From positions 31,091 through 95,090 of IMG/VR virus record IMGVR_UViG_3300028534_000019: 64,000 nt of DNA; one strand, written 5' to 3'. Every line of letters starts with the position of its first letter. The first letter of the stretch is position 1. Shown piece after piece: positions 11,539 to 61,600 of the stretch. Origin of the DNA: a virus. Lineage: Duplodnaviria > Heunggongvirae > Uroviricota > Caudoviricetes. The position numbers and the translations under genes were made by a program. Under the pieces are notes generated by a model that saw only the letters and a list, made by a program, of their open reading frames with translations, made no database searches and was not told the origin of the DNA.

Positions 11539-11547
11539 GGTATTACT

Positions 11548-11715: not shown

Positions 11716-11723
11716 TATAAATA
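11716..11723 (+). promoter_or_regulatory. T4-type late promoter box TATAAATA
   Basis: Exact TATAAATA 19 nt upstream of the nuclease-terminase operon ATG at 11742. Confidence 0.45.
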
Positions 11724-11741
11724 ATTATAAAAGGATTTATA

Positions 11742-12089: not shown

Positions 12090-12099
12090 AGGTTTTATT

Positions 12100-13872: not shown

Positions 13873-13875
13873 AAA

Positions 13876-13897
13876 TTAAGTATTTTTACTGTATAAT
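13876..13897 (+). promoter_or_regulatory. Promoter candidate (TTAAGT-N10-TATAAT)
   Basis: AAAATTAAGTATTTTTACTGTATAAT, 29 nt upstream of the ATG at 13926. Confidence 0.55.
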
Positions 13898-13925
13898 AAA
13901 ATCTATTAAAAATAAAAGGTTATAT

Positions 13926-14552: not shown

Positions 14553-14574
14553 TAATCTCTATAATAGAAAATCA

Positions 14575-14582
14575 TATAAATA
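14575..14582 (+). promoter_or_regulatory. T4-type late promoter box TATAAATA
   Basis: Exact TATAAATA 25 nt upstream of the ATG at 14607. Confidence 0.4.
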
Positions 14583-44579: not shown

Positions 44580-44794
44580 TGACAAATATTCAAAAAATTA
44601 AATTTGATGCTAAATTTAGTGTTTCATATATGAATGGAAAATATGTTATTTCAGGTTTTAATCATACTTATTCTTTACATATAAAAGATAGATGTGATGA
44701 ATTAAATTATTTCATTGAAGATTATGAATTATGGAATTTAAGAGAAAAAGAATGGGAAGACCTTGTAAATACAATTAAGAAAGAGGGATTTTAA
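44579..44794 (+). CDS. Hypothetical protein
   Basis: The ATG at 44579 overlaps the methyltransferase stop (TAATG) and is preferred to the GTG at 44570. Confidence 0.45.
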   Translation: MTNIQKIKFDAKFSVSYMNGKYVISGFNHTYSLHIKDRCDELNYFIEDYELWNLREKEWEDLVNTIKKEGF

Positions 44795-45411
44795 ATCTCT
44801 CCTGATTGTATTTTACTTAATAAACTAGCTGTATCGCCAATAAAATTATTCTGAATATTAACAGTTTTTTCATCATTTTGTTTTTCTAATTCATAAGCAT
44901 TTAAAAATTTCTTAACTTTAAGTTGTGTTTCAGCAACAGTAGAATAACTATCCATCAATAACTTCATACTTGTAACATTACCTTTTTTAAGTTCAGCATA
45001 TGCCATTAAAACACTACCTGAAACCTCTTCAGAGTGTGATACAGCTAAATCCTTACCTAACTTAGATAAAATCTCTTTCGTCGTCTGTATATCTTCTCTT
45101 AGTGCTTGTTTAACTATATCAAAATCAGTTAATAATTCATCACTCTTTACAATACTTGCTAATGTATCACTATCATTTAAAACAGGAACTTGTTTTATTT
45201 TCTCATCTATTTCTTGTTTTCTTTTTTTAAGATTATCTTCAAGACCATCAGCCTCTAATTCAAAAGCGTCTAACAAACCTAAAAATTTATTTGCTTCTTC
45301 TAATTCTTTAGAAACCTTTTCATTTACATCTTCTATAATTTCTATTTCATCAGTATTATCAGTTGATTTATTTTCTGTAAAATCTATATTATTTTCTTCT
45401 ATATTAGACAT
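44791..45411 (-). CDS. Hypothetical acidic protein (last gene of the minus-strand tail operon)
   Basis: 206-codon ORF downstream of the gp15-like gene. Convergent with the plus-strand genes. Confidence 0.6.
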   Translation of the reverse strand: MSNIEENNIDFTENKSTDNTDEIEIIEDVNEKVSKELEEANKFLGLLDAFELEADGLEDNLKKRKQEIDEKIKQVPVLNDSDTLASIVKSDELLTDFDIVKQALREDIQTTKEILSKLGKDLAVSHSEEVSGSVLMAYAELKKGNVTSMKLLMDSYSTVAETQLKVKKFLNAYELEKQNDEKTVNIQNNFIGDTASLLSKIQSGEI

Positions 45412-45434
45412 TTAAAACCTTTTTTATTATTTTT

Positions 45435-46223
45435 TTATTCATTTGGATGTGTTATAGTTGTTTTAGCATTATCTATGTTATAATCATCTTCATCTACTTG
45501 TTTTGAATTAATAAAACCTGATAATTCCTCTATCTCATATACTTCACTTTTGTAATTTATTTCAGTTGTAACAGCAGTAGTATAAATTTCAACCTCTTTA
45601 ATAATGTGTGCTTCTTTTATAGGTAAGTATAAATTACCCTTAACAGTTATCGGTACTGAAATTTCAACAAGATATATTTCATCATCATTTGGTTCAGGTA
45701 ATTCAATATCAAAATCACCTAATTGTACTTGTATAGATGTAGGTTCTTCTTGTATATCTAATTCATTAATTTTTAATGTGTAATCAGGTCTAAATAATGG
45801 TGCTATCTGTTCAATGATTATAGTAGCATCAGAAAATGTTTTTGTAGCAATATGTAAAGTAAATTCAAAATCATAAGCAACAGAATTTTTATGAAATAAT
45901 CTTGTAATATCTTCTTTACTTAAATTATCTTTTGATGTTCTGTTTACAATAGAATTTTTATTTGTATTTCTATTTAATGCTTTATTTAAGCCATTAAATT
46001 CTAAAGCCATTCTTGGTAATACATTAACATTACCATTATTAATATTTTCTATATCATAATCACTCAACATAAAAGCAATATTTCTATTCCCAAATTTTAT
46101 AGGTACTTTTGTATCTGAAATTCTTTTACCTGTATTATCAAATCTTGGTACACTAATATCATTAAATAAATCTATCAAAGCAATAGTATAATTTTTAGTT
46201 GAGTTGTGGTAAAAGTAGTTCAT
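45435..46223 (-). CDS. 15: Tail sheath stabiliser / tail completion protein (T4 gp15-like)
   Basis: MNYFYHNSTKNYTIALIDLFNDISVPRF...KVPIKFGNRN...VLPRMALEF parallels T4 gp15 MFGYFYNSSFRRYATLMGDLFSNIQIKR...RVPITYASKE...ILPRINLHL, from memory. Confidence 0.7.
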   Translation of the reverse strand: MNYFYHNSTKNYTIALIDLFNDISVPRFDNTGKRISDTKVPIKFGNRNIAFMLSDYDIENINNGNVNVLPRMALEFNGLNKALNRNTNKNSIVNRTSKDNLSKEDITRLFHKNSVAYDFEFTLHIATKTFSDATIIIEQIAPLFRPDYTLKINELDIQEEPTSIQVQLGDFDIELPEPNDDEIYLVEISVPITVKGNLYLPIKEAHIIKEVEIYTTAVTTEINYKSEVYEIEELSGFINSKQVDEDDYNIDNAKTTITHPNE

Positions 46224-46259
46224 AATTTTCCTTGTTAAAATATGTTATTTTATATTAAT

Positions 46260-46283
46260 ATTCTTAGGAAAAATCCTAAGAAT
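46260..46283 (-). terminator. Hairpin between the tube and gp15-like genes (attenuator/terminator candidate)
   Basis: ATTCTTAGGA / TCCTAAGAAT form a 10-bp perfect stem with a 4-nt loop. Confidence 0.45.
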
Positions 46284-46289
46284 AATTTT

Positions 46290-46814
46290 TTACATTTTAA
46301 TCCAGTGAGTAAATGCAAAATCAACAGTAAACTCAGTTACCATATCATTACTTTCATCAGCCATATCAATAGAACTGATATTAGTCGGCCAAAGGTTTCT
46401 AAATTGATAAGTAAGTTTTACACTATTATCTCTTGTATCTAATTGTTGAATTTGTGCTGTTTCAGTCATATAAGAAGCATTAGTAGTAACTTTTCTTTTA
46501 TGATTTTCCATATCATCAATAAATACCAACCAATCATCAAATAATTTTCTTAATTCGTGGTCTTGTGTGTTGTAAAATGTTAAAGACCAAGTATTTTCAT
46601 AAGCCGCATCACCTGCAATTATAAGTTTTCTACCTTGTGTCCAAACCTCAATTTGCCCAATAGATTTAGCTGGTATCGGCCCGCCCTTACAAAGAGTATC
46701 TATCTTTTTATCATCTTTTGGTCCGACAGGAGCCGCCAACATAACTCTATATTTATTTGCTCTTGCACCTAAACCAAGAGTACTTTTTAATTCTTGTACT
46801 TTACTAGAAGCCAT
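46290..46814 (-). CDS. 19: Tail tube protein (T4 gp19-like), paralogue 1
   Basis: GARANKYRV, FDDWLVF and NLWPTNISSIDMADESNDMVTEFTVDFAFTHW parallel T4 gp19 ...GLWPTNVGELQLDWDSNNEIQTFEVTLALDYWE. Confidence 0.85.
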   Translation of the reverse strand: MASSKVQELKSTLGLGARANKYRVMLAAPVGPKDDKKIDTLCKGGPIPAKSIGQIEVWTQGRKLIIAGDAAYENTWSLTFYNTQDHELRKLFDDWLVFIDDMENHKRKVTTNASYMTETAQIQQLDTRDNSVKLTYQFRNLWPTNISSIDMADESNDMVTEFTVDFAFTHWIKM

Positions 46815-46864
46815 AACTTCCTCCTTTTTTTAATCTTAATACAAAATTTGTACTAATTCTTATT

Positions 46865-46872
46865 TATTTATA
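46865..46872 (-). promoter_or_regulatory. T4-type late promoter box TATAAATA (minus strand)
   Basis: The plus strand reads TATTTATA, 51 nt upstream of the tube paralogue 1 ATG. AAAGGAGG RBS. Confidence 0.4.
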
Positions 46873-46886
46873 TATGGTATTTTTTA

Positions 46887-47399
46887 TCAATCCCAATGTG
46901 AATAATTAAATGTAACAGTAAACTCTAACAACCCTTCTGTATCATCACTATAAGTAGATTCAGATAATGCTTTAGGATATAAATCATATATTGTATATGT
47001 AGCCATTGGTGAGTTATCTTTTGTGCTTAATTGTTGTAAAACAGCATCAGTCATATAACTTGGTGCTGATGAAGCACTTCTATTATTTGTATTAAAATCA
47101 TCTATAAAATTCATCCAAGCTAAAAATGCTTTTCTTAATGTATGCTGTTCTGTATCAACAAATGTTAAATCCCAAGTTCCTGTAAAAAGTGTTTCACCAG
47201 CGATAGTTAATTTTTTACCTTGTACATATACTTCTACATCAGCAAATTCTTTACCAGGAATATTAGCACCTTTAACTAATGTATTAACTATATTATTACC
47301 CGGCCCGCCACCTTTTGAATTAAGAATTAGTTTATATCTATTTGACCTAGCACCTATACCAAGTGTATTTTTTAGATTTTGAATTGTACTATTTGCCAT
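46887..47399 (-). CDS. 19: Tail tube protein (gp19-like), paralogue 2
   Basis: Clearly alignable to paralogue 1 (MANSTIQNLKNTLGIGARSNRYKL..., ...DLYPKALSESTYSDDTEGLLEFTVTFNYSHWD). Confidence 0.85.
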   Translation of the reverse strand: MANSTIQNLKNTLGIGARSNRYKLILNSKGGGPGNNIVNTLVKGANIPGKEFADVEVYVQGKKLTIAGETLFTGTWDLTFVDTEQHTLRKAFLAWMNFIDDFNTNNRSASSAPSYMTDAVLQQLSTKDNSPMATYTIYDLYPKALSESTYSDDTEGLLEFTVTFNYSHWD

Positions 47400-47410: not shown

Positions 47411-47923
47411 TTAAAATGTTTCAATATATGATGCTTTGGCTGTTATACTAAATTCAGCTATTGAAGCACCAGCACTATTATCTAAAGTCGGCCCGCCTAC
47501 TGTAACTAAAATACAATCTTTGAATTTAATAATATCTTGAAAGGTATTAATATCAAAGTCAGTGGCAGTTTGAACTAATATATCAAACCTTTGGTTTTTA
47601 GGGTATTCTCTTGAAAATTTTTGTGAAGCACTTGACCACATTCTATATAGTGTAAAATTTTCTAAATCTTTCATAGTAACAGTAACTTGAAAATTTTCTA
47701 ATCTACCCACTGCAAATCTCCATTCCTCAGCTACCCATTCCTCAATAGGTGATGAATTAACCTCAGCTAACTGTATATTAGTTATAGCGGCCGTCAGTGT
47801 ATCAGGGTCAACTGTAATAGCACCAGCGGCTGTTCCACCTGTTGGTAATATCATAACCTTAAATTTAGAGGGGTCTTGCCATCTAATAGACTTAGCAAGT
47901 TGTATAGGTGCTGATAAAGCCAT
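47411..47923 (-). CDS. Divergent tail-tube-fold protein, paralogue 3 (tube or tube-initiator-like)
   Basis: Same size and position as the tube genes. Starts MALSAP..., using the third in-frame ATG, which is preceded by GGAG. Shares a weak FKV...W...F.VTV pattern. Confidence 0.5.
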   Translation of the reverse strand: MALSAPIQLAKSIRWQDPSKFKVMILPTGGTAAGAITVDPDTLTAAITNIQLAEVNSSPIEEWVAEEWRFAVGRLENFQVTVTMKDLENFTLYRMWSSASQKFSREYPKNQRFDILVQTATDFDINTFQDIIKFKDCILVTVGGPTLDNSAGASIAEFSITAKASYIETF

Positions 47924-47937
47924 AAGCATCTCCATAT

Positions 47938-47955
47938 TTTATAAATATTTATAAA
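47938..47955. promoter_or_regulatory. Perfect 18-bp palindrome carrying TATAAATA on both strands (bidirectional late promoter candidate)
   Basis: TTTATAAATATTTATAAA is its own reverse complement. The plus-strand box is 47940-47947 and the minus-strand box is 47946-47953. It lies between divergent tail genes. Confidence 0.55.
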
Positions 47956-47964
47956 AGGAAAACA

Positions 47965-48654
47965 ATGGCTTTAGTATATAAAGAAGAATATAAAAATATA
48001 GCTAAAATAGGTGGTAAAGAAATTCATTTTAAACCGTGGAATACAAAAAATGAAAAAGAATTTTTAATTGCTGTTGAATCTGATGAAGATATTACAGATT
48101 CAATGCTATATGAATTATTAGTTAAACCTTGTATAAAAGAACAAGATATTGTACTTGATGAATACGAACAAAAATTACTTATGATTGAAATGAGGAAAAA
48201 ATCTATTGGTAGTACTTTCCCATTGAGTTACAAATGTTCTAATTGTAAAAATCTTAATGAGATTGAAGTAGAATTAGATGATATTATTAAATATAATGAA
48301 CCAAAATATGATGAGGTTACCGTAGAAGATATAACTATATCTTTTGGAGTTCCAAGAACTGAAAAATTAATCAAAAGACTTGATGAAGTTGATACAAAAG
48401 TAGAAAAAACTTTTTATAATTTTTTAATACATATAAACTATATTATTATTGATGGTGTTAAAGAAGATACATTTAGTTTTGAGGAGTTAAAAGATTATAT
48501 TGAAAGTTTACCAACATCTATTTTTGATGAATTTTATGAAAAATATAGTGCTATGAGTCCTAATTTAAGGTTTGAGTTAGACCAATATTGTATGTTTTGT
48601 AATGAGAAAAATCAGATTAATCTTGAAGGAATCCCAAATTTTTTATGGGCATAA
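47965..48654 (+). CDS. 26: Baseplate hub assembly protein (T4 gp26-like) with zinc ribbon, paralogue 1
   Basis: HFKPWNTKNEKEFL...LLMIEMRKKSIGS...YKCSNCKN...CMFCNEKN, ending IPNFLWA. This resembles the T4_baseplate (gp26) pattern from memory. Confidence 0.5.
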   Translation: MALVYKEEYKNIAKIGGKEIHFKPWNTKNEKEFLIAVESDEDITDSMLYELLVKPCIKEQDIVLDEYEQKLLMIEMRKKSIGSTFPLSYKCSNCKNLNEIEVELDDIIKYNEPKYDEVTVEDITISFGVPRTEKLIKRLDEVDTKVEKTFYNFLIHINYIIIDGVKEDTFSFEELKDYIESLPTSIFDEFYEKYSAMSPNLRFELDQYCMFCNEKNQINLEGIPNFLWA

Positions 48655-48844: not shown

Positions 48845-48916
48845 TATTTAATTTAAAGAATAAAGAACCATTATGTCATTAAAGACTCAATGATAAATAT
48901 AAACAAAAGGAAAATT

Positions 48917-49618
48917 ATGGCTTTACAATATAAGCAATCGTATAATAATATCTCTAAAATAGGAGATAAAGAAATTCATTTTAGACCTTGGAGTGCTAAA
49001 GATGAAAGACTTTATTTGAAGTTAATTGAAAAAACTGAAAATATAACAGAAGAAGATTTTTATAACACTTTAATAAAACCTTGTATAGAAGAAAAAGATT
49101 TAGTTTTAAGTCAAGCAGAACAAAAGAAACTATTACTAGATATTAGAATTAAATCAATTTCTGAATTTATTGAAGATGATATTGTATGTGAAGAATGTGA
49201 AGAAATCACTAAAATCAAAGTTAAAATAGAAGACTGTTTAACTTATATACCAAATACATTTAAACCAATTAAAATAGATGATATAGAGATTGAATTTGAT
49301 AAACCAAAAACAATGAAAGATTATTTTAATGTAACTGAGGGTGAAAGTGTCGTAGATTATATCTATGATATGTTTTTGCTACATATAAGTAAAATAAAAA
49401 TGGTTAGTGAAGATGGTGAAAAAGTTTATGATGATATTTCTATTCAAGATAAAGAAGATTTTATAAATTCATTACCTAGTAAGATGTTTGATGAATTTTT
49501 TGAAAAATTTCAAGAAATGCTAGATGAAACAAAAATAACCTATAAGTTTACTTGTCCTAAATGTAAACACAAACAAGAAACAGACTACAATTTTATACCT
49601 AACCTTCTTTGGGTATAA
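48917..49618 (+). CDS. 26: gp26-like hub assembly protein, paralogue 2
   Basis: MALQYKQSYNNISKIGDKEIHFRPWSAKDERLYL... is alignable to 47965-48654. Cys pairs CEECEE / CPKCKH, ending IPNLLWV. The ATG at 48917 (RBS AAAGGA) is preferred to 48890. Confidence 0.5.
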   Translation: MALQYKQSYNNISKIGDKEIHFRPWSAKDERLYLKLIEKTENITEEDFYNTLIKPCIEEKDLVLSQAEQKKLLLDIRIKSISEFIEDDIVCEECEEITKIKVKIEDCLTYIPNTFKPIKIDDIEIEFDKPKTMKDYFNVTEGESVVDYIYDMFLLHISKIKMVSEDGEKVYDDISIQDKEDFINSLPSKMFDEFFEKFQEMLDETKITYKFTCPKCKHKQETDYNFIPNLLWV

Positions 49619-49654: not shown

Positions 49655-49662
49655 TATAAATA
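49655..49662 (+). promoter_or_regulatory. T4-type late promoter box TATAAATA
   Basis: CTATAAATACTTTTAA lies 31 nt upstream of the tape measure ATG. The same 16-mer occurs at 62436-62451. Confidence 0.5.
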
Positions 49663-49692: not shown

Positions 49693-52600
49693 ATGAGTGC
49701 TAACAAAAGAACTAATAAAAGAAAAACTTTTAAAAAACCTACATTAATAACTTTACCAAAAATAAAAGGTAGTGATTATAGAAATAAAGATAATTATGAA
49801 GAACCTAATGGTTTTAAAGAAAAAAAATCTAAACCATCATCTTTATTTGCTAAAATGGCTCAAGATTTAGCTAAGGTTAAAAAAGAGAATGAAGAATTAA
49901 ATAATAAACTTGAAAAAATTTATGAAGTTCAAAAAAACTCTAATGCTCAGATAATCAAAAACCAACAACAAAGTATAGATATACAGCACGACCAAATGGA
50001 ACAACAAAGAGAGGCTGAATATAAAAAAGAACATTCTTATGCTAAAAAAGTAAAAGAAAAAATAGTTTATATTAAAGAAAAAACTAAAGATTCTTTATCA
50101 AATGCTGGTGGAAAAATCAAGAATGGTTTTAATAAAGTAAAACAGAAAACATCAGGTTTTTTTGATTTTATAAAGAAAGCAGCGGGAATAGCATTATTTT
50201 TAAAACTTTTTTGGCCGGTGATTAAAAAGAAAGTGATACCTTATGTTAAAGATACACTAATACCTCAAATTAAAGATTTTTTAAATAATAAAGTAATACC
50301 ATTTTTTAAAGATACTGTAATACCCGGCTTAGAGAAATTTTTCAAAGATACACTTTGGCCGATGATAAAAAACAATTTTGGTGATATTTTAAAAGGGTTA
50401 GGTATAACAGCATTTTTGTTAAATCCTGTTAAATTTATAACAACAGCAATAAAATTGGCTTTTAAAACTACTTTTTTTGGAATTAAACAAATAGTAAAAT
50501 TATTACCTAAACTAGCAGGTTTTTTAAAATCACCAGCAAAATATTTAGCAACAAAAGGGTTAGATTTAGCTAAACAAGGTGCTACTAAGGTTTCTGATTT
50601 AGCTAAACAAGGTGCTACTAAGGTTTCTGATTTAGCTAAACAAGGTGCTACTAAGGTTTCTGATTTAGCTAGAGATGGAGTTGATGCTGTTTCTGATTTT
50701 ACAAAAAATGATAGTATAAGTGATATGGCTGAAAATGGTTATGATAAATTAAAAGACTCTAAAGGAAGTGGTGGTTTATTAGAAAAAATTAATAAAAAAA
50801 TTGATTCTATGAAAGAAAAAATAACAAAAATTTCAGGGTCTTTGATAGATAAAGGAATTGGTTTAGCTAAAAAATTACCATCAAGTTTTGGTGCCGCACT
50901 GAAAATGTTAAAACCACTAGCAAAACTTATTCCATTTTTAGGAACAGCATTAATGGTGTGGGATGTTATAGATTTATTTTTCCCTAATTTAACAAGTAAA
51001 CTCACAGAATTTTTTAGTTGGAAGAATATTAAAGAAATGGCTTCAAGTATATGGGAAAAAGTTAAAGAAGTATTTGGTAGTGTTTCTAAATGGATAAGTG
51101 ATAAATTTAGTGGTATAATTTCAAGTGTAAGAAAAATGGTAGGTAAATTATTTTTAATGAGTCCTATGACTGCATTGTTACCTGATTCTATTAAGAAAAA
51201 AGTATATAATTTTATTGTAGGAGATGATAAAGAAGCTAAAAAAGAAGAAAAATCTTCAGCTATGTTTAAAAAAGGTTATGCTAATGATGATTGGGGTGAT
51301 AATAGTATAAATGAACAAAAGATTAAAAAAGATTTAAAAACAGGTAAAATTAATATTAAAGATTTAGAAGCATTGTTACAATATGGGAATTTAGATGAAG
51401 ATGAACAAGATAAATTAAAGAAAATAATTTCTTCTAATACTAAAACTAAAAAAACTAAAAAAACTTTAGGTAATGTTTCATCTATTAGTAATACTACTGA
51501 TGTTAAAAAACCTCTAACAAAAGAACAAAAACAAGATAATTATATTAAATCTATGGATGCCCAAATTGGAGCATTTACAAAAACAAGAGATAAAATTAAA
51601 ACAGCACTTGATAATAAAGATTTAAGTCCTAAGAAAAGAAAAGGTTTAGAGAAAGCATTATCTTATTATGATACACTTATCAAGAAGAAACAAGAAAAGA
51701 AACAAAGTTTAGTAAAACATAAAAAACATAAAAAACCTACAAGAACATCAGAATCATCATATATGATGGCTGATGGGAAAGGTGGGAAAGTTCCAATAAC
51801 TAAAGAGCAACACGACAGAATGGATGCCATTCAAAATAAAATTTCTGTTGCTTTTGATGGTGGAAACAGTGAAGAAATAGATAAATTACTTAAAGAACAA
51901 GAAGATTTAAGAGCAACAATAATTAAAGAAGGATTTAAACCTTCACAAAGTATAAGTATTTCTAATACTTCTAGTAGTTCTAGTACAACAAATAATTCTT
52001 TTGGTAATGTTAGTAATGTTAGTAATGTAGGTAATACTTTTTTATCAGCAAAACCTAATACTGCTCAAAGTGTAGCAAATCCAAGTGAGTCTGAAACACC
52101 AAAAACAGATGGTTTTTTTACTTCTCAAATGAAACCTAGTTTTGATACAAAACCAAAAGATGTAAGTACAAGTGGTTTTAATCAATCACAAAGTAATGAT
52201 TTAGATGATAAAGAAAGAAAACAATTAAAAATGGAAAAAATACCTGCTAAAAAAATATTCAAATTAACAGGTAGTGCTTCAAGTGGTGGTTTTGAAAAAA
52301 TGAATAAATCATTACAACATAATGTTAAATTATTTGGTATGGAATATGCTGAAAAAACAGGAGAAAAACTAACTATTAATTCAGCATATAGAAGTGTTAA
52401 ATTACAAAAAAAATTATTTGAAAATAAGAAAAAAGAAGTAAGAAAAAAACACCCTGAATGGTCAGATAGTCAAGTTCTTAGGGAAACAAGAAGATGGGTA
52501 GCACCTCCAGGGAGAAGCGCACACAATTCAGGTTTAGCAATTGATATAGGTTATCAAAATAGAAAATCTCCATCAATGGATAAAGCAGATAGATTAGGTT

Positions 52601-53952
52601 TATTATCAAAATATGGTTTAACAAGGATGTTACCAAACGAGCCTTGGCATATTACACCATCAAGTTTAACAAAAACTGATTTAAAATCAGTTGCTAATGA
52701 AATAGAACAAGATGTAAAAGATGGTAATTTTACAGAAGATAATATTACAAAAGGAGTATATTTAGCTAAAGCAACAGGTTCTACAATATCAGATATGGAT
52801 GAGCCTGAATTACCAAGTACTTTAGCAAATTCTTTAACACAACCTAAAGAACAAAGTATAACTATACCTAATACAAGTAATGTAGCTAATACAAGTAATG
52901 TAGCTAATACAAGTAATGTAGCTAATACAAGTAATGTAGCTAATACAAGTAATGTAGCTAATACAAGTAATGTTAAAAATAAAAAAAATAAGTTTAAAGA
53001 ACTTGTTAAAAAAATTGATGGGTCAATAGTTTATGCTCAAAGAGGATTAAAAGATTTTGGTATAACTTCTCTTAATCCATCAGATATGGGAGAAGCAAAA
53101 AATAGTGGTGGTTTTGTTGGTAATGAGTCATTATATGATAAACAGGATTCTTTATATACTGATATGTTAAAAAGTCAAAAGGCTCAAAATAATATTGTAA
53201 AAGATTCTTATAATGCTTATAGTACAGTGGATGGTGCTATTAAAACTGAAAATGTACCTGATGGGTATGAAATATATACAACAGATGGTGGTGTATCTAC
53301 ATTAATTAAGAAACCTTTAGAAGATAGCAAGAATAATAAACCTATGGCTAAAGAAGTTGTAAAACAAGAACAACAAATACAACATAAACCTATGGCTAAA
53401 GAAGTTGTAAAACAAGAACAAAATCAAAGTGTATATAAAAAAGGGTTGAGTAAATTTGGTAAAATACTATCTAATCCATTTGAAAGTTTAGGTAATGGAA
53501 TAGAAAAAGTTGTTAGTAAAACACAAGATTTTGGTAACAAAGTTAAAGATGTATTAACTGATAATCCTATTGTTAATAAAGAGAAAGAAATAATAGATAA
53601 TGTTAGTGGTAGTATAAGTGGAATTTTTGGTGGAGTTGAGAATCATTTTGATGATATGAGTTCAAAAATTAAAGGTAAAGATAATATTAATTTATTAAAT
53701 GATAATAAATCATATTCTAAAGCACCTTTACAAAAAGCAAAAGTTAAAAAAACTTCAGCACCAAAAATAGATATTGATAATGTAGCCAAAAAACTATTAG
53801 CATCAAATAAAACAGAAACTAAACAAGTAAAAGATGAAAATAAAGCACCTATAATAATTAATCAGTCATCAGGTGGTGTTAGAAATGATGATGTTTCATT
53901 ACACGAAATAAAACCAAAACAAGATATGTTTGGTATTATGGAGATGTTATAA
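49693..53952 (+). CDS. Tail tape measure / tail length determinator (gp29-like role) with an embedded M15 peptidase domain
   Basis: 1419 aa, K/E-rich and helical, with hydrophobic segments near aa 160-270, internal tandem repeats, and a position between the hub chaperones and the baseplate genes. Confidence 0.75.
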   Translation: MSANKRTNKRKTFKKPTLITLPKIKGSDYRNKDNYEEPNGFKEKKSKPSSLFAKMAQDLAKVKKENEELNNKLEKIYEVQKNSNAQIIKNQQQSIDIQHDQMEQQREAEYKKEHSYAKKVKEKIVYIKEKTKDSLSNAGGKIKNGFNKVKQKTSGFFDFIKKAAGIALFLKLFWPVIKKKVIPYVKDTLIPQIKDFLNNKVIPFFKDTVIPGLEKFFKDTLWPMIKNNFGDILKGLGITAFLLNPVKFITTAIKLAFKTTFFGIKQIVKLLPKLAGFLKSPAKYLATKGLDLAKQGATKVSDLAKQGATKVSDLAKQGATKVSDLARDGVDAVSDFTKNDSISDMAENGYDKLKDSKGSGGLLEKINKKIDSMKEKITKISGSLIDKGIGLAKKLPSSFGAALKMLKPLAKLIPFLGTALMVWDVIDLFFPNLTSKLTEFFSWKNIKEMASSIWEKVKEVFGSVSKWISDKFSGIISSVRKMVGKLFLMSPMTALLPDSIKKKVYNFIVGDDKEAKKEEKSSAMFKKGYANDDWGDNSINEQKIKKDLKTGKINIKDLEALLQYGNLDEDEQDKLKKIISSNTKTKKTKKTLGNVSSISNTTDVKKPLTKEQKQDNYIKSMDAQIGAFTKTRDKIKTALDNKDLSPKKRKGLEKALSYYDTLIKKKQEKKQSLVKHKKHKKPTRTSESSYMMADGKGGKVPITKEQHDRMDAIQNKISVAFDGGNSEEIDKLLKEQEDLRATIIKEGFKPSQSISISNTSSSSSTTNNSFGNVSNVSNVGNTFLSAKPNTAQSVANPSESETPKTDGFFTSQMKPSFDTKPKDVSTSGFNQSQSNDLDDKERKQLKMEKIPAKKIFKLTGSASSGGFEKMNKSLQHNVKLFGMEYAEKTGEKLTINSAYRSVKLQKKLFENKKKEVRKKHPEWSDSQVLRETRRWVAPPGRSAHNSGLAIDIGYQNRKSPSMDKADRLGLLSKYGLTRMLPNEPWHITPSSLTKTDLKSVANEIEQDVKDGNFTEDNITKGVYLAKATGSTISDMDEPELPSTLANSLTQPKEQSITIPNTSNVANTSNVANTSNVANTSNVANTSNVANTSNVKNKKNKFKELVKKIDGSIVYAQRGLKDFGITSLNPSDMGEAKNSGGFVGNESLYDKQDSLYTDMLKSQKAQNNIVKDSYNAYSTVDGAIKTENVPDGYEIYTTDGGVSTLIKKPLEDSKNNKPMAKEVVKQEQQIQHKPMAKEVVKQEQNQSVYKKGLSKFGKILSNPFESLGNGIEKVVSKTQDFGNKVKDVLTDNPIVNKEKEIIDNVSGSISGIFGGVENHFDDMSSKIKGKDNINLLNDNKSYSKAPLQKAKVKKTSAPKIDIDNVAKKLLASNKTETKQVKDENKAPIIINQSSGGVRNDDVSLHEIKPKQDMFGIMEML
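50563..50661 (+). repeat. Perfect 33-nt tandem repeat x3 inside the tape measure (DLAKQGATKVS)
   Basis: GATTTAGCTAAACAAGGTGCTACTAAGGTTTCT starts at 50563, 50596 and 50629. A degenerate fourth unit follows (DLARDGVDAVS). Confidence 0.95.
52370..52660 (+). other. VanY/M15B-like peptidoglycan peptidase domain within the tape measure
   Basis: INSAYRSVKLQKKLF, WVAPPGRSAHNSGLAIDIGY and NEPWHITP give the SxYRS...PGxSxHxxGxAxD...WH pattern. Confidence 0.7.
52870..52974 (+). repeat. Perfect 18-nt tandem repeat x5 plus a partial sixth unit (NTSNVA) inside the tape measure
   Basis: AATACAAGTAATGTAGCT starts at 52870, 52888, 52906, 52924 and 52942. The sixth unit diverges to ...GTTAAA. Confidence 0.95.
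53338..53421 (+). repeat. 36-nt direct repeat x2 with a 12-nt spacer (KPMAKEVVKQEQ) inside the tape measure
   Basis: AAACCTATGGCTAAAGAAGTTGTAAAACAAGAACAA occurs at 53338-53373 and 53386-53421. Confidence 0.9.
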
Positions 53953-53975: not shown

Positions 53976-54686
53976 ATGATTTATCCATTAAATTTATTTA
54001 CACCAGACCCTATAACAAATAGCCTTAGACCATTTATGATGTTCTCAGCAAAAGAAGTCAATTTTAATGCTATGAGGGCTAAATCGTGGTCTGATGCTAA
54101 GGAAACATTATCAACAAAAATGATATTTGCTTTACCTATACCAAATACAGGTATTATGGATTCATTCCAAAATGAATATGGCAGTGAACCATCAGTTGGT
54201 GGTTTACTTGCTCAGAAAGCCCAAGATACTTTTAATGCACTTCCGGGTGCCGCTGGAATTTCATCAGCATCAGCAAGATTAGGCTTTGTTGCCGACCCTA
54301 AATATACTCAACTATACAAAGGTTCTTCACCTAGAAGTTGGAGTGGTACTTGGCAAATTGTTCCTGAATCATTAGGAGAATCACTTGTTGCTCATATGAT
54401 GTTAAGAGCAATTAAATATTGTGCCGCACCTGATAAAAAATCTGATGCTAGTAATAAAATAGGTGTATTAATACAGCCTTATGTTTTTTCAATAACAATT
54501 TCTAATCCTTTAATAGATAGAGCAGTAAAATTTGATAAAATGGTGATGAAATCTTATGATATTACTTATTATGCTCAAGGTTATGCTAGTTCTTATAAAG
54601 ATATGTTTCCAAAACAAATATCTTTATCATTAAAATTTGAAGAATTTGGAATTAAAACTAGAAAAGATTGGGGAAAACCTTTCTAA
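53976..54686 (+). CDS. Tail/baseplate protein (possibly a gp48/gp54-like tube cap or initiator)
   Basis: Positioned directly after the tape measure. FALPIPNTGIMDSFQNEYGSE is a weak resemblance only. Confidence 0.4.
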   Translation: MIYPLNLFTPDPITNSLRPFMMFSAKEVNFNAMRAKSWSDAKETLSTKMIFALPIPNTGIMDSFQNEYGSEPSVGGLLAQKAQDTFNALPGAAGISSASARLGFVADPKYTQLYKGSSPRSWSGTWQIVPESLGESLVAHMMLRAIKYCAAPDKKSDASNKIGVLIQPYVFSITISNPLIDRAVKFDKMVMKSYDITYYAQGYASSYKDMFPKQISLSLKFEEFGIKTRKDWGKPF

Positions 54687-54706
54687 TAAGAGAGTAAGGA
54701 AAAATA

Positions 54707-55216
54707 ATGAAAAATAAATATTTAGAATTTGATAATATGGATTTTATTGATAACAAACAAGTTAAGAATTTCACAAGGTTATCTTATTTACCTGATTTAC
54801 CTAAAGATTTTTGGGATAATTTTACATTTGATACATATTTAGTTGATGATGATGAATATATAGAAGGTATATCTTGGAGATTATATGAAACTACTGATTA
54901 TTGGGATGTATTAATGTTTCTAAATGGTATAACAAATTTTTATGATTTACCTAAAAATTTCAATGTTGTTGTAGAAAGAACTATGTCAAAAGTTGATAAA
55001 TGGAATCAGTTCTCAAATAAAAAGTTATCAGAAGAAGAAAAAGAGAAAAAATATAAAGAGTTATTAGATAAAGAAAATGAAAAAAATGAAAGATTTAGAC
55101 ATATTAAATATCTTACACCAAGTGGGTTATCTGATTTAGAACATTATTTAGATACATTTAAAGGTAAACCAAAAATATTACCTAACTTAATAATAAATCC
55201 ACCACAAGAAAACTAA
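54707..55216 (+). CDS. Hypothetical baseplate-cluster protein
   Basis: 169-codon ORF within the baseplate operon. Confidence 0.55.
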   Translation: MKNKYLEFDNMDFIDNKQVKNFTRLSYLPDLPKDFWDNFTFDTYLVDDDEYIEGISWRLYETTDYWDVLMFLNGITNFYDLPKNFNVVVERTMSKVDKWNQFSNKKLSEEEKEKKYKELLDKENEKNERFRHIKYLTPSGLSDLEHYLDTFKGKPKILPNLIINPPQEN

Positions 55217-55243
55217 ATATCTAAATATACTAAAGGAGTATAA

Positions 55244-56353
55244 ATGGGTTATAATATAGGGGTACAATCAAACCATTTTAAAGAATTTTCTTTAACAATA
55301 GATGGTATTAAGATAGTAGAAGAACAAATAATATCACTTATGATAAATTGGGATATTAATCACTTTAAAATAACAGGTTCTCTTAGTTGGAAAGATGGAA
55401 GTTGTATGGTAGAAGAAACACCGATTAGAGGTGGTAATACAGTAGTAATTAATATGACTGATTTTGATGGGGCTTCATATTCAGGGAACTTTAAAGTCTT
55501 AAATACAAATTATGAAAGAAGCACAGATTTTTATATAAGTACAATATCTTTTATTGATACAGAAAGTTTTAACATTTTAAAACTTTATCCAACAAAGTCT
55601 TGGCTTCAAGCAACTATGGTACAAATAATTGATGATGCCAAGACAGCAAAACCTTTCTTAACTTCAAAAGGTAAAGAATTTAATGACCCTGGTTTAATGC
55701 ACGAGAATTTTGTTGTGCCTCAAAATAAAAACTTTTATTGGACAATAGAGTGGTTAAAACAAAGAAATAATAGGTTAATGTTTCAAAATAGAGAGAAATA
55801 TATTATTGATGATTTTAATACATTAATAAACAAAGGTGTTAAAGGTAAGCCATATTATTTTAAAGCAAATAATGCTTCATATAAAAGAAATGTTTATGAA
55901 TATAGTGTAAAAAATTCAGATTTTATTAAGAATATAGCAACTATGCCAAATGTAGAATTTCCTTATTTTAATGTTGATTACAAACATAAACAACAAACAA
56001 AAGGCTCATATGCAGATGCTTCAGGTGCTATTGGTGGGCAAGGTACATTAAATGATTTTAGTTCAAATGGGGATAAATTTAGTTTTATATCAAATACAAA
56101 TTTTGAAGAAACTAAAGATTTTTATTTTCAGAAAAATGCTTTATCTAACTTAGTTGTAGAAATATTAGTTCCTGGGCAATGTAAAACAAATTTAGGTGAT
56201 GTAGTATGTTTAGAATTTGATAATTTATTTGAGGGAAAAGGTCCGGAAAAGAATATTAAAGGTAAATTTCTAATTGTAGGATTAACAGATATTTTTCAAA
56301 ATCCTGAATATTTACAAAAATTAACATTAGCAAGACCAAAATGGTTTAAATAA
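55244..56353 (+). CDS. Baseplate hub protein (gp27 / gpD-like), tentative
   Basis: Size and position immediately upstream of the gp5-like spike. AAAGGAG RBS. Confidence 0.5.
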   Translation: MGYNIGVQSNHFKEFSLTIDGIKIVEEQIISLMINWDINHFKITGSLSWKDGSCMVEETPIRGGNTVVINMTDFDGASYSGNFKVLNTNYERSTDFYISTISFIDTESFNILKLYPTKSWLQATMVQIIDDAKTAKPFLTSKGKEFNDPGLMHENFVVPQNKNFYWTIEWLKQRNNRLMFQNREKYIIDDFNTLINKGVKGKPYYFKANNASYKRNVYEYSVKNSDFIKNIATMPNVEFPYFNVDYKHKQQTKGSYADASGAIGGQGTLNDFSSNGDKFSFISNTNFEETKDFYFQKNALSNLVVEILVPGQCKTNLGDVVCLEFDNLFEGKGPEKNIKGKFLIVGLTDIFQNPEYLQKLTLARPKWFK

Positions 56354-56364
56354 AGGGATATTAA

Positions 56365-57435
56365 ATGAATGATATAATGTATAATAAGAGTAATTTAAAC
56401 TCAACTAAAATTTTTTATAGAGCAGTAATAGAAAATAGAGTTGACCCTAAAAAACTTGGTAGATGTCAAGTTAGAATATTAGGAATACACTCCGAAGAAG
56501 CCACAGGAGATAAAGTTCCAAAGGAGAACCTACCTTGGGCTGAGTTGATAGGAAGCAACGGTTATAACGGAGGTATGAGTGGTATAGGTATTAGTGCTGT
56601 ACCTGAGCAAGGTTCTTGGGTATGGGTATTCTTAGAAGATGGTGATTGGAATAAACCTATTATAGTAGGTACAATATATGGTATATCATCAATGTTAAGC
56701 CCCGGCACTAACCCCGGTTTTCACGACCCTGATGTACAATTTCCTTATGCTGATAGACTTAATGAGCCTGATTTTAATAGATTAGCAAGAAATGAAAAAG
56801 TAAATGAAACAATAATTATTACAATCAAGGATGCTAATAGAGATAAATCAATACCAACATCAACTGGTAAATTATGGGATGAATTGAAAGAAACTACTAC
56901 TTTAGCAGAATACCCAAATAATAGAGTGATAGAAACAAGACACCATTCTTATATAGAACTTGATGATACTGATGGTAATGAAAGATACCATTATATTCAT
57001 AAAACAGGAACTTATAGAGAAATAGTAGAAACAGGTGATGAAACAAACAAAGTAATAAGAGATAAGTACCTAATAGTTGATAGAAATCTTAAAGAATTAA
57101 TAAAGGGTAATATGTGGACTACTGTTTATGGTGATAATGAAGATTATGTACAAGGTTATAGAGAGATACTTGTTTCAGATTATCAACACGAAATAGTTGA
57201 AAAACATCTTAAAGAAGAATATATGGACTATAAAGAAGAAGATGTGCATAAATATCTAAAAGAGCATTATCATAGCACCAAAGATGAAACAGTTGATGGT
57301 ATGCTAACAGAGAAATATAATAGTACAAAAACAGAAACAGTGTCAGGTTTAGTAAGTGAGAGTTATAATTCAGGACAAACAACAGATGGCGGGCCGTTTA
57401 TACAAATAACAGCAGGTGTTATAACTCTTAACTAA
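56365..57435 (+). CDS. 5: Baseplate central spike (gp5 / gpV-like OB-fold plus beta-helix), no lysozyme domain
   Basis: FYRAVIENRVDPKKLGRCQVRILGIH...LPWAELIG...VPEQGSWVWVFLEDGDWNKPIIVGTIYG. The C-terminus has 8-residue-type repeats (KDETVDGMLTEKYNSTKTETVSGLVSESY). Confidence 0.85.
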   Translation: MNDIMYNKSNLNSTKIFYRAVIENRVDPKKLGRCQVRILGIHSEEATGDKVPKENLPWAELIGSNGYNGGMSGIGISAVPEQGSWVWVFLEDGDWNKPIIVGTIYGISSMLSPGTNPGFHDPDVQFPYADRLNEPDFNRLARNEKVNETIIITIKDANRDKSIPTSTGKLWDELKETTTLAEYPNNRVIETRHHSYIELDDTDGNERYHYIHKTGTYREIVETGDETNKVIRDKYLIVDRNLKELIKGNMWTTVYGDNEDYVQGYREILVSDYQHEIVEKHLKEEYMDYKEEDVHKYLKEHYHSTKDETVDGMLTEKYNSTKTETVSGLVSESYNSGQTTDGGPFIQITAGVITLN

Positions 57436-57446
57436 AAGGATAAAAA

Positions 57447-58292
57447 ATGGAATTAAAAGTAAAAGATTTTATTATAGATAAAAATATACCATTAGCACTA
57501 ATAGAAAATCCTGTTAAGGCAACGGCTTGTGCTGTAAAAGGTATGAAATTATATGAAGAAAGTAAAATTTTAAAAAGTTTGTTTAATATAGGAAGAATAA
57601 AATTAAGAGTTTTAAAACCAATATTAGAAGGACTTTTATTAATTGAAACTGTTAAAAATTTATCAGTAGTATTACCAAGTCCAACTAAGATTACAGAAGT
57701 AAATGCTAATGCTAGTATAAATTTACCTGAATGTTTGGTTGGTAAAAAAGTAACAGCAGTTGCTAATAAAATAAATAATTCTACATCAAAAGCAAGTGTT
57801 AGTGTAGAAATTAAGAATAATATTGATATAATGTCAGTAACAGCAGAAGATTATATAAACAAAACTGTTTCAGGGATTGTTAATAGTGTATATTTACCAT
57901 TCTTTTATTTACTTGATGAGTATAGATGGTTTATTCAAAAAACTGAGTTTGCTAAACTTTATAAAGAATGGAAAGAAGATTATAGTTGTTTTGTTAATAA
58001 TTGCGAACCACTAAAAGATATTGTAACAGATGATTCTTATATGTGGGAAGATAATAGAAGTCAATTTATTTTACCAATTGATATTAATTCAGGAAAATTA
58101 AGACTTTGGAAGATATTAGGAAATCCTAGTGAAACAACAAAAGATAAATGTTATGAAATAGAAAAAGAATATTATGATTTTACACAAAAAAGAAAAGAAT
58201 TAGCTCAACAAGGTAAGAAAATATTATATGAAAAAGGAATACCTGATGAAATAAACCCTTTTATAGAACTAATAAATAAATATAAAATATAA
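57447..58292 (+). CDS. Hypothetical baseplate-cluster protein
   Basis: 281-codon ORF between the spike and gp25-like genes. Confidence 0.55.
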   Translation: MELKVKDFIIDKNIPLALIENPVKATACAVKGMKLYEESKILKSLFNIGRIKLRVLKPILEGLLLIETVKNLSVVLPSPTKITEVNANASINLPECLVGKKVTAVANKINNSTSKASVSVEIKNNIDIMSVTAEDYINKTVSGIVNSVYLPFFYLLDEYRWFIQKTEFAKLYKEWKEDYSCFVNNCEPLKDIVTDDSYMWEDNRSQFILPIDINSGKLRLWKILGNPSETTKDKCYEIEKEYYDFTQKRKELAQQGKKILYEKGIPDEINPFIELINKYKI

Positions 58293-58303
58293 TAGGGTAT
58301 AAT

Positions 58304-58654
58304 ATGAGATATGTTGATATTAATAATAATTTAAAGTTAGATAAAGATTATAAAGCAGTAGAAAATTCTGTACATAATATATTATCAACAAGAAAAGGTT
58401 CAGTGCCAGGAGTTCCAAATTTTGGAAGTAATTTATATTCTATTGTTTTCAATCAACTAGACCCAATTATAGAAACAACAATAAAAAATGAAATAGTAGA
58501 AGCATTAGAATATTGGGAACCGAGAATTGATATTAAACATATAAATATCATTGAAGATGAAGATTATAACAGACTAAAAGTGTTCATAGGTTATGAGATA
58601 TTATATGATGTAATACAAAAAGAATATGAATATCTGTTTGTAATTAACAAATAA
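58304..58654 (+). CDS. 25: Baseplate wedge protein (gp25 / gpW-like)
   Basis: VENSVHNILSTRKGSVPGVPNFGSNLYSIVFNQLD...IKNEIVEALEYWEPRIDI is the GPW_gp25 signature. Confidence 0.85.
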   Translation: MRYVDINNNLKLDKDYKAVENSVHNILSTRKGSVPGVPNFGSNLYSIVFNQLDPIIETTIKNEIVEALEYWEPRIDIKHINIIEDEDYNRLKVFIGYEILYDVIQKEYEYLFVINK

Positions 58655-58670
58655 GGATATGGAGAAATAA

Positions 58671-61600
58671 ATGAGTACAACTAGTGAAGAACTTTTAGAG
58701 ATAGTACCTTATGATTTAGAAGAAATTAAAAAAGAACTTAAAGATAGAGCAATATCTGATTTAGGAATGACTGATGCTCAATATGAGGGTTCAAATATTT
58801 CACAAATAATAGATATTATTGCTTATAATACATTAATTAATAATTATAATTTTACTTATGGTTTTAATGAAATGTTTATTACAAAAGCAAGAGATAAATC
58901 TAATGTAATTTCACACGCAAGGGCTTTGGGTTATATTAATAAAAGAAAAACATCTTATCAATATAAAATTAGATTAAAATCTAAAGTAGCTGGACAAGTA
59001 ACATTAGATAAATACACACCTTTTGAATCAGGTGGTAATCAATATGTTTATATGGGTGACCCTTTTACTGATTCTTTTGGTACTGAGATAATTATCTATT
59101 CTCTATATAATGAATATGAAAATGGTTTAACTCAAGATTTTTATAAAAATATTGTAAAAGATGATTATATTATTACTGAAGAGGGTGTTGTATTTAGACT
59201 TCTTGATAATACAGAAGAAGCAGAATATCCAAAAATGCTACTTGAACAAATTACAAAAGGTGAAGTAAAAGAGTTATCAGGTTTACCACAACAAATTTTT
59301 TATAAAGATAAAAGAACATCAAAATTAGTTCAATTCGGAACAGTTGATAGTTATCTAATTTCAGGTGATAAATTTCTAGTACAATATAATTCAGATTCTT
59401 ATAATAGATTAAATCCTTGGACTGTAAGTCCTTTAATAACAAATAGTTTTAAATTAATAGATGGTAAATTAACAGTTGATAATGACTTAAATTTTAATAA
59501 TCAGTCAGATTTTAAAATACAAAGTATAGTTGAAGTATTAGTTGATATTGAAGCAGATGGTAATTATGTTGTATATGATGTTAATTCTGTTACAATATCA
59601 GATGATAAAACAACAGTTTATTTCCCTACTGATAAGATGGCTGTAAGAGAAAATGTAAACTCAGCAAATATTCATTCATTGGGTGGTGATGCTTATTCTA
59701 TTGATACTCAATATATCATATATGATGAAGATTCAGTAACAGAATTAGAAATTATTATTGCTGGTTTAGAACCTCTAAGATTATATAAAAAAGGTTATGT
59801 AGTTGTTAATGATGATGATGATAAACTTAAAAGAGTTGCTTTAGACCCTATTAAAAATAGATTAACTGATGATTATATAGCACCTGAAATAAATACAACT
59901 TTGTATGTATTTGATAAACCAATTGTTGAAAGAGTTATAAGTGTAGATTTAGTAAAAATAACCAAAGCATCAGATGGTAGTGTAATATTTGTTCCTGATG
60001 ATAAAATAACATTATCTGATAATCAAATGATTATAGATGATTCAGTAGGTTTAGAAAAAGATGATGAAGTAGAAGTTAGTTATACTTTTTATACTAATGT
60101 TACTGAAGCAGATGTTTATGTTCATTACTTATATTCTTATAGTGATTTAGATGGTAAACATCTTAAAATAAGTATAGGTTATGATGAAAATAATGATGGA
60201 AGACCTGATGCTTTAATTTCTTTTTCAGATTTAAAACCTGAGCCCGGGATTAATTGGGAAGGTTTTCCTTTGTTTGATTGGCAAGAAGAAACAGAAATTC
60301 TTATATTTGATATTAGAACTTTGAATATAGATGACACATTAGTTAAACAATCTTTATATAAAGAAACTGGTTTACAAATACACGAATGTTTTACTACACC
60401 TTTTAGATTAACAAGATTTTCAAAGACACAACCTGAAGTAGATGCTTTAGGTAAAGTTACTTATCAAGATTTTGATAGTAGCACTTGTTTTGCTAGTACA
60501 AAAACTATACAAGAAAAATATGAATTTGAAGTTGTTGTTACTGAGGGTTCTATGGAAAGATATAGTGAATTAGATGATGAAGGTAACATTAAATATCCTG
60601 AATTAAGTGTTGTTATTACACCTGATATGGAACAATCAGGTTATTTTGTTATTTATGGTAAAGATATAGAACAAAATGGTATAGAAATGTTTATTGATGG
60701 TGTTAAGAAAAATGGTACACTTCATAACTCTAAACCTTGGTATCAAAGAAGTTCATTATTAGCTGAAAAGATAATTGAAGATAATACTTTTATTTCATTA
60801 CCTGATGCTGAATATCCTGATTATATCAAAATTTATACTAGATATGCTTCTTCAGGTATAGAAATTATGAGTGGAAACTTATGTAAATTGAATATACTTA
60901 AAACATCAGGTTCTAAGGGTTATACTAACCTTTTAATTTCTCCTAAAGATACTAGTATTTTTGATGCTGTTTATATTAATGAAGAAGCAAAAGTTCCTAA
61001 TATATTATTTGTAGAAGGAAGTGATGAAGAGAGTATTGATGAAATTAGAGAAAATGCTCCATTATTTAGTAATACAGCTAATAGAGCAGTAACTAAAAAA
61101 GATTATAAAACTATTTGTGAGGCTCAACCTTATGTTTATAATGCTCAGATTTGGGGTGGTGAAGAGATAAGACCTTGTCCTCATTTAGGAGAAGTTTATA
61201 TATCTATTATACCTTATTCAAGAACATTAGACTTGGTTAAAGATAATGATACTTATAAAATTGATACATCATTACCTGAAATGTTTTTTCCAACATATTA
61301 CCAAATAACAGGTAAGATTGAGGAAACATCAACTGAGAAAAATATAACTGATAAGAGTATTTTATTTAATATTTTAGATAATTATAAAGTAATTACAATA
61401 AAATTAAATTATGCTAAACCTGTATATATAGAAAGTAAAGTAACAATAGATTTACTTAAAAATAAACCGGGTAAATCAGTTAATGAAATTAGACAAGATT
61501 TGGTTAATGCTATTAGAAATTATTTTACTGAAAATGTAGAATTTTTTGAATCAACAATTTATAAATCAACTTTAGTTAAAAAACTTGATGAAGTTATAGG

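Follow-up and report, generated by a model that had tools for sequence, protein, structure and literature searches.

A dyad-symmetric candidate for a bidirectional T4-type late promoter between divergent tail operons of a distant T4-like phage

In the late promoters of bacteriophage T4, an 8-bp box precedes the transcription start by about one helical turn, the melting segment is rich in A/T and a -35 element is lacking (PMC2988020; PMC1524935). The T4 box is recognised by RNA polymerase bearing gp55, together with the co-activator gp33 and the sliding clamp gp45. In bacteria, Warman, Grainger and co-workers have described bidirectional promoters that are widespread and that arise from the symmetry of the -10 element (bioRxiv 10.1101/2020.01.31.928960). 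The divergent starts of such promoters lie from a few to about 25 bp apart and their two binding modes are mutually exclusive (bioRxiv 10.1101/2020.01.31.928960; PMC12825309); for the bidirectional promoters of E. coli, competition between the two directions is significant only at high promoter activity (PMC12825309). Here we describe a perfect palindrome that carries the T4 late box, TATAAATA, on both strands and lies between two divergent tail operons of a virus known from the IMG/VR record IMGVR_UViG_3300028534_000019. The stretch that we analysed, hereafter the window, comprises 64,000 nucleotides (positions 31,091 to 95,090 of that record), has a G+C content of 26% and belongs to a distant T4-like myovirus. 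We put at roughly 85% the probability that the palindrome is a dyad-symmetric bidirectional late promoter of the T4 type, which would be recognised by a gp55-like factor.

Arrangements of this general kind exist in T4 itself, where Scarlato et al. in 1989 reportedly found that overlapping promoters direct the divergent transcription of a base plate gene cluster. The junction of T4 genes 26 and 51 reads TATTTATAAATA and contains two exact boxes that overlap by 4 bp, each on the side of its own gene; the T4 GenBank records annotate no promoter features at this junction. The gap between T4 genes 4 and 53 contains TATAAATA-N7-TATTTATA. In Acinetobacter phage Ac42 (HM032710 / NC_014660), the gp26/gp51 junction carries an 18-mer, TTTATAAATATTTATAAA, that is identical to the one found in the window, and we know of no discussion or mapping of promoters at this Ac42 site.

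Overlapping late boxes at the junction of the tail operons

The original prediction, made from the letters of the window, was of an exact 18-bp palindrome presenting the late box on both strands. Direct reading bears out both statements: TTTATAAATATTTATAAA, at 47938-47955, is its own reverse complement, and TATAAATA occurs on the plus strand at 47940-47947 and on the minus strand at 47946-47953. One extra symmetric base on each side extends the palindrome to 20 bp. The elements of the site are listed below.

47937-47956, both strands: 20-bp perfect palindrome TTTTATAAATATTTATAAAA, read directly; its 14-bp core, TATAAATATTTATA, at 47940-47953, holds both boxes
47940-47947, plus strand: putative rightward promoter box TATAAATA, at -13 to -6 by the spacing of PMC1524935, heading the hub/tape-measure/baseplate operon
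47946-47953, minus strand: putative leftward promoter box TATAAATA, with a 2-bp overlap with the plus box
47953, plus strand: predicted rightward start (A), from T4 spacing, with a 12-nt leader, AAAAGGAAAACA, and then ATG
47940, minus strand: predicted leftward start (A), from T4 spacing, with the leader AAAAUAUGGAGAUGCUU and then AUG
47955-47960, plus strand: Shine-Dalgarno sequence AAGGAA of the hub gene
47930-47933, minus strand: Shine-Dalgarno sequence GGAG, belonging to the leftward gene, whose ATG at 47923 follows after 6 nt; relatives show the same layout

By T4 geometry (box at -13 to -6), 13 bp would separate the two starts, which enclose both boxes, and the two transcripts would not overlap. 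The intergenic gap was originally given as 29 bp, which holds for the longest open reading frames (ORFs; CAT at 47933-47935 and ATG at 47965). The minus-strand frame, however, has three in-frame ATGs, at 47935, 47929 and 47923, and a Shine-Dalgarno sequence stands only before the last of these. Since relatives show a matching layout, the minus-strand gene probably starts at the third ATG, 47923, rather than at 47935, and the intergenic space is probably 41 bp.

The genes that would be served by the two directions are as follows.

47965-48654, plus strand: first rightward gene, for a gp26/gp51-family baseplate hub protein (phrog_150), with a paralogue at 48890-49618
49693-53952, plus strand: gp29-like tape measure of 1419 aa, with its own TATAAATA at 49655-49662
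53976-62429, plus strand: rest of the rightward tail module, comprising gp48-like cap (box 53948), gp5-like, gp25-like and gp6-like genes
Starting at 62464, plus strand: gene after the rightward tail module (box 62437)
47411-47923, minus strand: first leftward gene, 170 aa, of unknown function and with no detectable tube similarity
44791-47399, minus strand: rest of the leftward operon, with two gp19-like tube proteins, a gp3-like sheath stabiliser and a 206-aa ORF
46887-47399 and 46290-46814, minus strand: the gp19-like tube proteins (phrog_45), which share 43% identity; an internal box lies at 46865-46872
45435-46223, minus strand: the gp3-like sheath stabiliser

The leftward genes had been described as a tube operon. 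Two of them are indeed tube paralogues, but the adjacent 170-aa gene is not a detectable one: the BLASTP comparison of its product with the tube proteins gives E = 7.5, and the protein has no Pfam hit and no similarity to the hub proteins. It makes weak matches only, to PHROGs of unknown function, and has homologues at the same position in all relatives examined. A palindromic hairpin (46259-46284) with an 11-bp stem (TATTCTTAGGA...TCCTAAGAATA) separates the gp3-like gene from the first tube gene and may serve the leftward operon as an internal terminator or attenuator.

The site shares with the late promoters of T4 the same 8-bp box, the lack of a -35 element, A/T richness from the box to the predicted start, a short predicted leader that runs up to a Shine-Dalgarno sequence and a position before virion or packaging genes. 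It differs in that the recognising proteins were not found in the sequences searched, and in the unusually strong conservation of AAA at +1 to +3. The T4 26/51 junction also resembles the site in gene context: at both, opposite-strand boxes overlap directly before a phrog_150 hub gene that heads a hub/tape-measure/gp48 operon, and T4 gp26 and gp51 fall in the same PHROG as both hub genes of the window. In T4, however, the boxes overlap by 4 bp and the predicted starts are about 23 bp apart, whereas the window site has its boxes in the opposite order, with an overlap of 2 bp and predicted starts at a distance of 13 bp. The divergent partner also differs. In T4 it is the paralogue gp26, whereas the window has both phrog_150 genes (47965 and 48890) on its plus strand, and the partner there is the 170-aa protein, followed by the tube genes. 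The T4 4/53 gap likewise has two exact opposite-strand boxes in one short space between divergent late genes, but 7 bp separate these, which puts the predicted starts in that interval and the box of the opposite promoter in each leader. Ac42 has a Shine-Dalgarno sequence and an ATG on both sides of its copy, at the homologous hub-gene junction, and differs from the window in that its divergent partner is gp26, as in T4. The recurrence of the same junction in T4 and Ac42, with hub genes of one PHROG, suggests that a two-way late promoter at this place is old in the T4 superfamily and that only its geometry varies.

In the symmetry-based bacterial promoters, RNA polymerase can use one pseudo-symmetric -10 region in both orientations, and here too -10-type elements coincide on opposite strands, within a 14-bp perfect dyad. 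The bacterial promoters are built from sigma-70 hexamers, mostly with 18 bp between the starts, whereas the window site is built from a phage late-class 8-mer, with perfect symmetry and a predicted distance of 13 bp.

We propose that host RNA polymerase carrying a gp55-like late sigma factor would recognise the box without a -35 element. Both promoters would lie on a single 14-bp stretch that has to melt; polymerase could dock in either orientation, and one docking would sterically exclude the other. Rightward transcription would yield an mRNA for both hub proteins of the gp26/gp51 family, for the tape measure and for baseplate proteins, and leftward transcription one for the 170-aa protein, the two tube proteins and the gp3-like sheath stabiliser; each leader would run directly into its Shine-Dalgarno sequence. 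Read both ways, one site would thus switch on both tail operons together at the late stage. Coupled or competitive firing, which had been suggested for the two boxes, is a reasonable inference from their steric overlap.

Box placement and promoter architecture in the window

The original prediction had named a lack of positional enrichment of TATAAATA upstream of late genes as one result that would count against it. In total number the box does not exceed chance: it occurs 20 times on the two strands of the window, against 27.4 +/- 5.0 expected from dinucleotide shuffles and 18-30 from Markov models, a background that agrees with the earlier estimate of more than ten chance copies per strand. 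We defined the upstream zone as sense orientation within 60 nt before an ORF start, which amounts to 4.1% of strand positions. This zone holds 13 of the 20 copies (binomial P = 6e-14), and the enrichment is therefore present. Among A/T-only 8-mers in the upstream zone TATAAATA ranks top, with 65% of its copies located there as compared with 12-20% for other A/T 8-mers and at most 22% for its own one-mismatch variants. One of these variants, AATAAATA, which is the commonest T4 variant of the late box, precedes the gp25-like gene and the second DnaK gene. Each of the 13 upstream boxes is followed by an ATG at 16-50 nt; our screen of box sites also demanded a Shine-Dalgarno-like tetramer 5-16 nt ahead of the ATG. 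All five boxes that had been listed outside the palindrome, at 11716, 14575, 46865 (minus strand), 49655 and 62437, are present, and those at 49655 and 62437 do have a 16-mer, CTATAAATACTTTTAA, in common. Boxes away from the tail operons are given below.

9312, 10383, 11716 and 14575, plus strand (span 9312-14582): one-way boxes, that at 10383 before the 195-aa gene and then the endolysin, that at 11716 before the nuclease and then the large terminase, that at 14575 before the neck protein
42924 and 42946, plus strand (span 42924-42953): tandem boxes before a 169-aa gene at 42973
3809-3816, minus strand: single box at the divergent junction of an 89-aa gene (minus strand) and primase, on the 89-aa side only

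The boxed genes comprise the nuclease-terminase operon, the neck gene, the 195-aa gene with the endolysin behind it, one tube gene, the genes on either side of the palindrome, those for the tape measure and the gp48-like cap and the gene after gp6, together with three more ORFs (89, 192 and 169 aa) to which no function could be assigned. Four of the boxed genes lack a known function, and all those with an annotated function belong to packaging, neck, tail or baseplate. Between the structural regions lies a 27-kb chaperone/metabolic block (15359-42903) that encodes two DnaK proteins, DnaJ, Nudix and ThyX-like proteins, nucleotidyltransferases and others; none of its 43 genes bears a box, compared with 12 of 45 genes elsewhere (Fisher P = 2e-4). 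Judged by this distribution, TATAAATA is a promoter class associated with virion and packaging genes.

Outside the 60-nt upstream zones we found only 7 of the 20 copies, against 27.4 expected window-wide, a scarcity that may reflect selection against stray late promoters. Two boxes in sense orientation stand at a greater distance from a start codon: one (58540-58547, plus strand) is located within the gp25-like gene and precedes the gp6-like gene by 123 nt, and the other (1195-1202, plus strand) precedes the gp32-like gene by 142 nt. Both might serve as late promoters, either internal ones or ones with long leaders. In T4, too, gene 32 has a late promoter.

Proteins identical to those of the window are encoded on metagenome contigs ENA ERZ27262685 and Logan SRR8439170, and the ENA and Logan contigs with window proteins (56.8, 7.9 and 7.5 kb) add about 8.6 kb to the left of the window and nothing of use to its right. 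We derived a sequence logo from 17 boxed sites in the window and these 8.6 kb, counting the box as -13 to -6. The logo shows no -35 element, the information content nowhere exceeding 0.36 bit between -58 and -14. Downstream of the box, positions -5 to -1 are nearly all A/T, with T preferred at -4 and -1, and an AAA begins 6 nt past the box, A being found in 16 of 17 sites at +1, in all 17 at +2 and in 15 at +3. This matches the published description of T4 late promoters, and we therefore count a T4-like architecture in favour of a bidirectional late promoter: the spacing of the 8-bp box, the lack of a -35 element together with an A/T-rich segment, and the placement before late genes are all as in T4.

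A second kind of signal is present in many gaps before genes that have no TATAAATA: TATAAT, frequently preceded by TTAAGT at a distance of 9-14 nt and closely followed by ACATA. The presence of this separate signal indicates a genome with at least two promoter classes. Sites of the TTAAGT/TATAAT type are found at 1140, 6654, 13876, 26613, 36850, 39378 and 48822, and TATAAT..ACATA occurs in many other gaps; the same type of signal also precedes the prohead protease gene and the second hub gene. The short spacing between TTAAGT and TATAAT is closer to the geometry of T4 middle promoters (MotA box) than to that of a -35/-10 pair.

Conservation and reuse of the dyad

We compared the same divergent junction in seven viral contigs (L123-L129) that encode relatives of the hub protein with 40-54% identity. 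The 14-bp core, TATAAATATTTATA, is exact in four of them (L123, L124, L125 and L128), whose hub proteins are 49-54% identical to that of the window and whose flanking intergenic bases and spacings differ. In L127, a 2-bp insertion yields TATAAATATATTTATA, in which two complete, abutting boxes are kept. The minus box of L126 has one mismatch, and L129, the most distant, has an exact plus box followed by TGTTTATA. This conservation excludes a chance origin of the palindrome. Moreover, both 8-mers are kept despite a change of spacing, indicating that it is the boxes that are under selection, rather than an operator of fixed spacing.

The last point bears on whether the palindrome could be mainly an operator for a dimeric regulator, such as a repressor or a late-promoter binder resembling DsbA. 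Perfect dyad symmetry is typical of operators, and DsbA of T4 binds A/T-rich sites that overlap late promoters (PMC2988020). The L127 junction, however, shifts the half-sites by 2 bp while leaving both 8-mers intact, and at eleven other boxes of the window the same 8-mer stands without a symmetric partner. We consider an operator as the main function to be highly improbable, although a regulator may bind the palindrome on top of its promoter function. A terminator or cruciform was considered separately and rejected, the stem consisting of A/T pairs only, with a folding energy of -3.6 kcal/mol (z = -1.4) and no terminator in the scan. Sigma-70 and terminator scans of the gap gave no match.

The dyad is also found away from the hub junction. 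The identical 20-mer occurs again in the same phage, about 8 kb to the left of the window (L122:2171-2190), flanked on one strand by a 263-aa gene and on the other by a 76-aa gene and then a Gp23-family gene. In a relative (L112:7000-7013), the palindrome lies between homologues of the 195-aa gene of the window (58% identical) and of the SNase nuclease gene (51% identical). Within the window (10383-12089) this pair runs in one direction, with separate one-way boxes and with the endolysin in between, whereas in L112 the two genes are divergent, with terminase behind the nuclease, and have the palindrome as their common putative promoter. From the gene orders, the difference between L112 and the window is a rearrangement with fusion or splitting of promoters. 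Three more loci (L027, L055 and L095) have the palindrome between divergent ORFs, each ORF with a Shine-Dalgarno sequence and an ATG. Among the first 121 copies of the palindrome in viral contigs, 7 lie between divergent ORF pairs of this description, Ac42 being one of the 7; most of the remaining copies come from A/T-rich giant-virus or other contigs.

A more far-reaching proposal is that the 14-bp dyad is, in this clade, a selected and portable two-way late cassette, which would have arisen or been kept where TATAAATA-bearing operons face apart, as at the hub junction, the capsid-side junction of L122 and the nuclease-terminase junction of L112. Full superposition could itself be functional, fixing the ratio of tube-side to hub-side transcription or forcing the two to alternate, or else leaving the choice of direction to the orientation of a tracking sliding clamp. 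We regard this as rather unlikely.

The recognising factor and the surrounding genome

Several observations weigh against the reading of the palindrome as a bidirectional late promoter. The loci that show reuse were retrieved by searching for the palindrome itself, and thus demonstrate reuse and not its frequency. The downstream consensus of one-way sites (T at -4, -3 and -1; A at +1) resembles a reverse box; from the 17-site frequencies, we put the share of one-way sites that chance alone would make palindromic at about 7%. A palindromic copy at L061:775-792 lies between co-directional genes. Finally, homologues of gp55, gp33 and gp45 were found neither in the window nor in the 8.6 kb upstream of it nor in fragments from the clade, and the late sigma factor is consequently a deduced component of the system.

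The resemblance of the downstream consensus, wTTwTAAA, to the reverse complement of the box, together with the L061 copy, would fit a promoter that works in one direction only, with the second box a by-product of the A/T-rich downstream consensus and the other operon transcribed from elsewhere. There is, however, no other promoter candidate in the 41-bp gap for the genes at 47411-47923 and 46887-47399. Both boxes are exact in four relatives and both survive the 2-bp insertion in L127, and 7 of the 121 sampled palindrome copies have a Shine-Dalgarno sequence and an ATG-initiated ORF on either side. Within the window, the divergent junction of the 89-aa gene and primase has a box on one side only. 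We therefore think it improbable that only one direction is a promoter, and continue to favour a site that is read both ways.

PHROG scans of all window ORFs and of ten ORFs upstream of the window revealed no gp55, gp33 or gp45. A home-made hidden Markov model (HMM) of gp55, and phmmer with T4 gp33, gp45, DsbA and gp59, applied to six-frame ORFs of the window, L122 and the clade fragments, gave no credible match; the best, at E = 0.03, was a lysine/glutamate-rich ORF that we dismissed, and phmmer with T4 gp33 and gp45 gave nothing below E = 0.04 in the same sequences. The profile does recover a very divergent gp55 homologue, CPt10_0461 of a Campylobacter phage, at 2.6e-17, and CPt10_0461 as a query found no homologue. 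A search for related loci with the gp55 alignment returned only marine T4-like contigs, and the best 120 of 7318 matches in a search for gp55 protein homologues were all of marine types. A degenerate DNA pattern for PNFxGYTWxD[DE] recovered 13 true gp55 genes, none of them from this clade. The replication module (polymerase, clamp, clamp loader, helicase and gp46/47) is likewise absent from the window, and its genes presumably lie in the remainder of the genome.

These results raise the question of whether the boxes might be -10-only promoters of the host primary sigma factor, or of a phage factor unrelated to gp55, with the likeness to T4 due to convergence at 26% G+C. The box contains TATAAA, which is -10-like, and the sequences searched contain no gp55. 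In addition, three loci of Campylobacter phages (L221, L223 and L225, including CP220 and CPt10; 27-31% G+C) have a gp55-like gene and structural genes, and contain no more than 0-1 copies of TATAAATA in 8-13 kb. These phages apparently use a different late signal, and the presence of the gene and the use of the motif are thus not rigidly linked. Against recognition by a host or unrelated factor stand the separate TATAAT-type class before genes without TATAAATA, the absence of boxes from the 43 genes of the chaperone/metabolic block, with all boxed genes of known function being virion or packaging genes, and the low share of one-mismatch variants upstream of genes (at most 22%, versus 65% for the exact box). 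The window also encodes a T4-type gene set, with homologues of gp32, RNase H, large terminase, gp3, gp19, gp26/51, gp29, gp48, gp5, gp25 and gp6. Convergence accordingly appears to us a poor explanation. The original prediction of a T4-type late promoter served by a gp55-like system is thus upheld by box placement, architecture, conservation, reuse and the equivalents in T4 and Ac42, whereas its protein component has no gp55, gp33 or gp45 homologue to match it in the window or the 8.6 kb upstream.

Searches at the DNA level found no close relative of the window among isolated phages, and the nearest large terminases, about 40% identical, are those of the Vibrio phiKT1024 group and the Campylobacter CP220 group. 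Besides the tail genes, the window encodes a gp32-like single-stranded DNA-binding protein, RNase H, primase, an SNase-like nuclease, large terminase, prohead protease and a neck protein. The chaperone genes (18640-20490, 20502-21305 and 39844-41706) comprise two DnaK (Hsp70) paralogues and DnaJ, the first DnaK scoring 769 bits against phrog_22485. A transfer-messenger RNA (tmRNA) gene at 39452-39772 on the plus strand (Rfam RF00023, 90.8 bits) has the tag peptide ANNTDYTGNTVLSA according to ARAGORN, and SmpB is encoded at 16602-17051 on the same strand (Pfam PF01668, 1.7e-38), such that both dedicated components of trans-translation are phage-encoded. Upstream of the tmRNA gene there is a TTAAGT-N-TATAAT at about 50 nt and a TATAAATA box at about 100 nt.

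If our reading of the junction is correct, the late signal of T4 is used essentially unchanged in a very distant, uncultured T4-like lineage of 26% G+C, and the habit of superimposing two promoters where late operons diverge has been kept in this lineage as well. Since T4 and Ac42 share the arrangement, a two-way late promoter at this place would be ordinary and not a new category. The box would serve within the clade as a reliable caller of late transcription units and as a corrector of start codons, as for 47923 versus 47935. With its perfect dyad and its predicted starts only 13 bp apart, the site would offer a clean natural substrate for the choice of orientation by a holoenzyme that relies on a -10-like element only.

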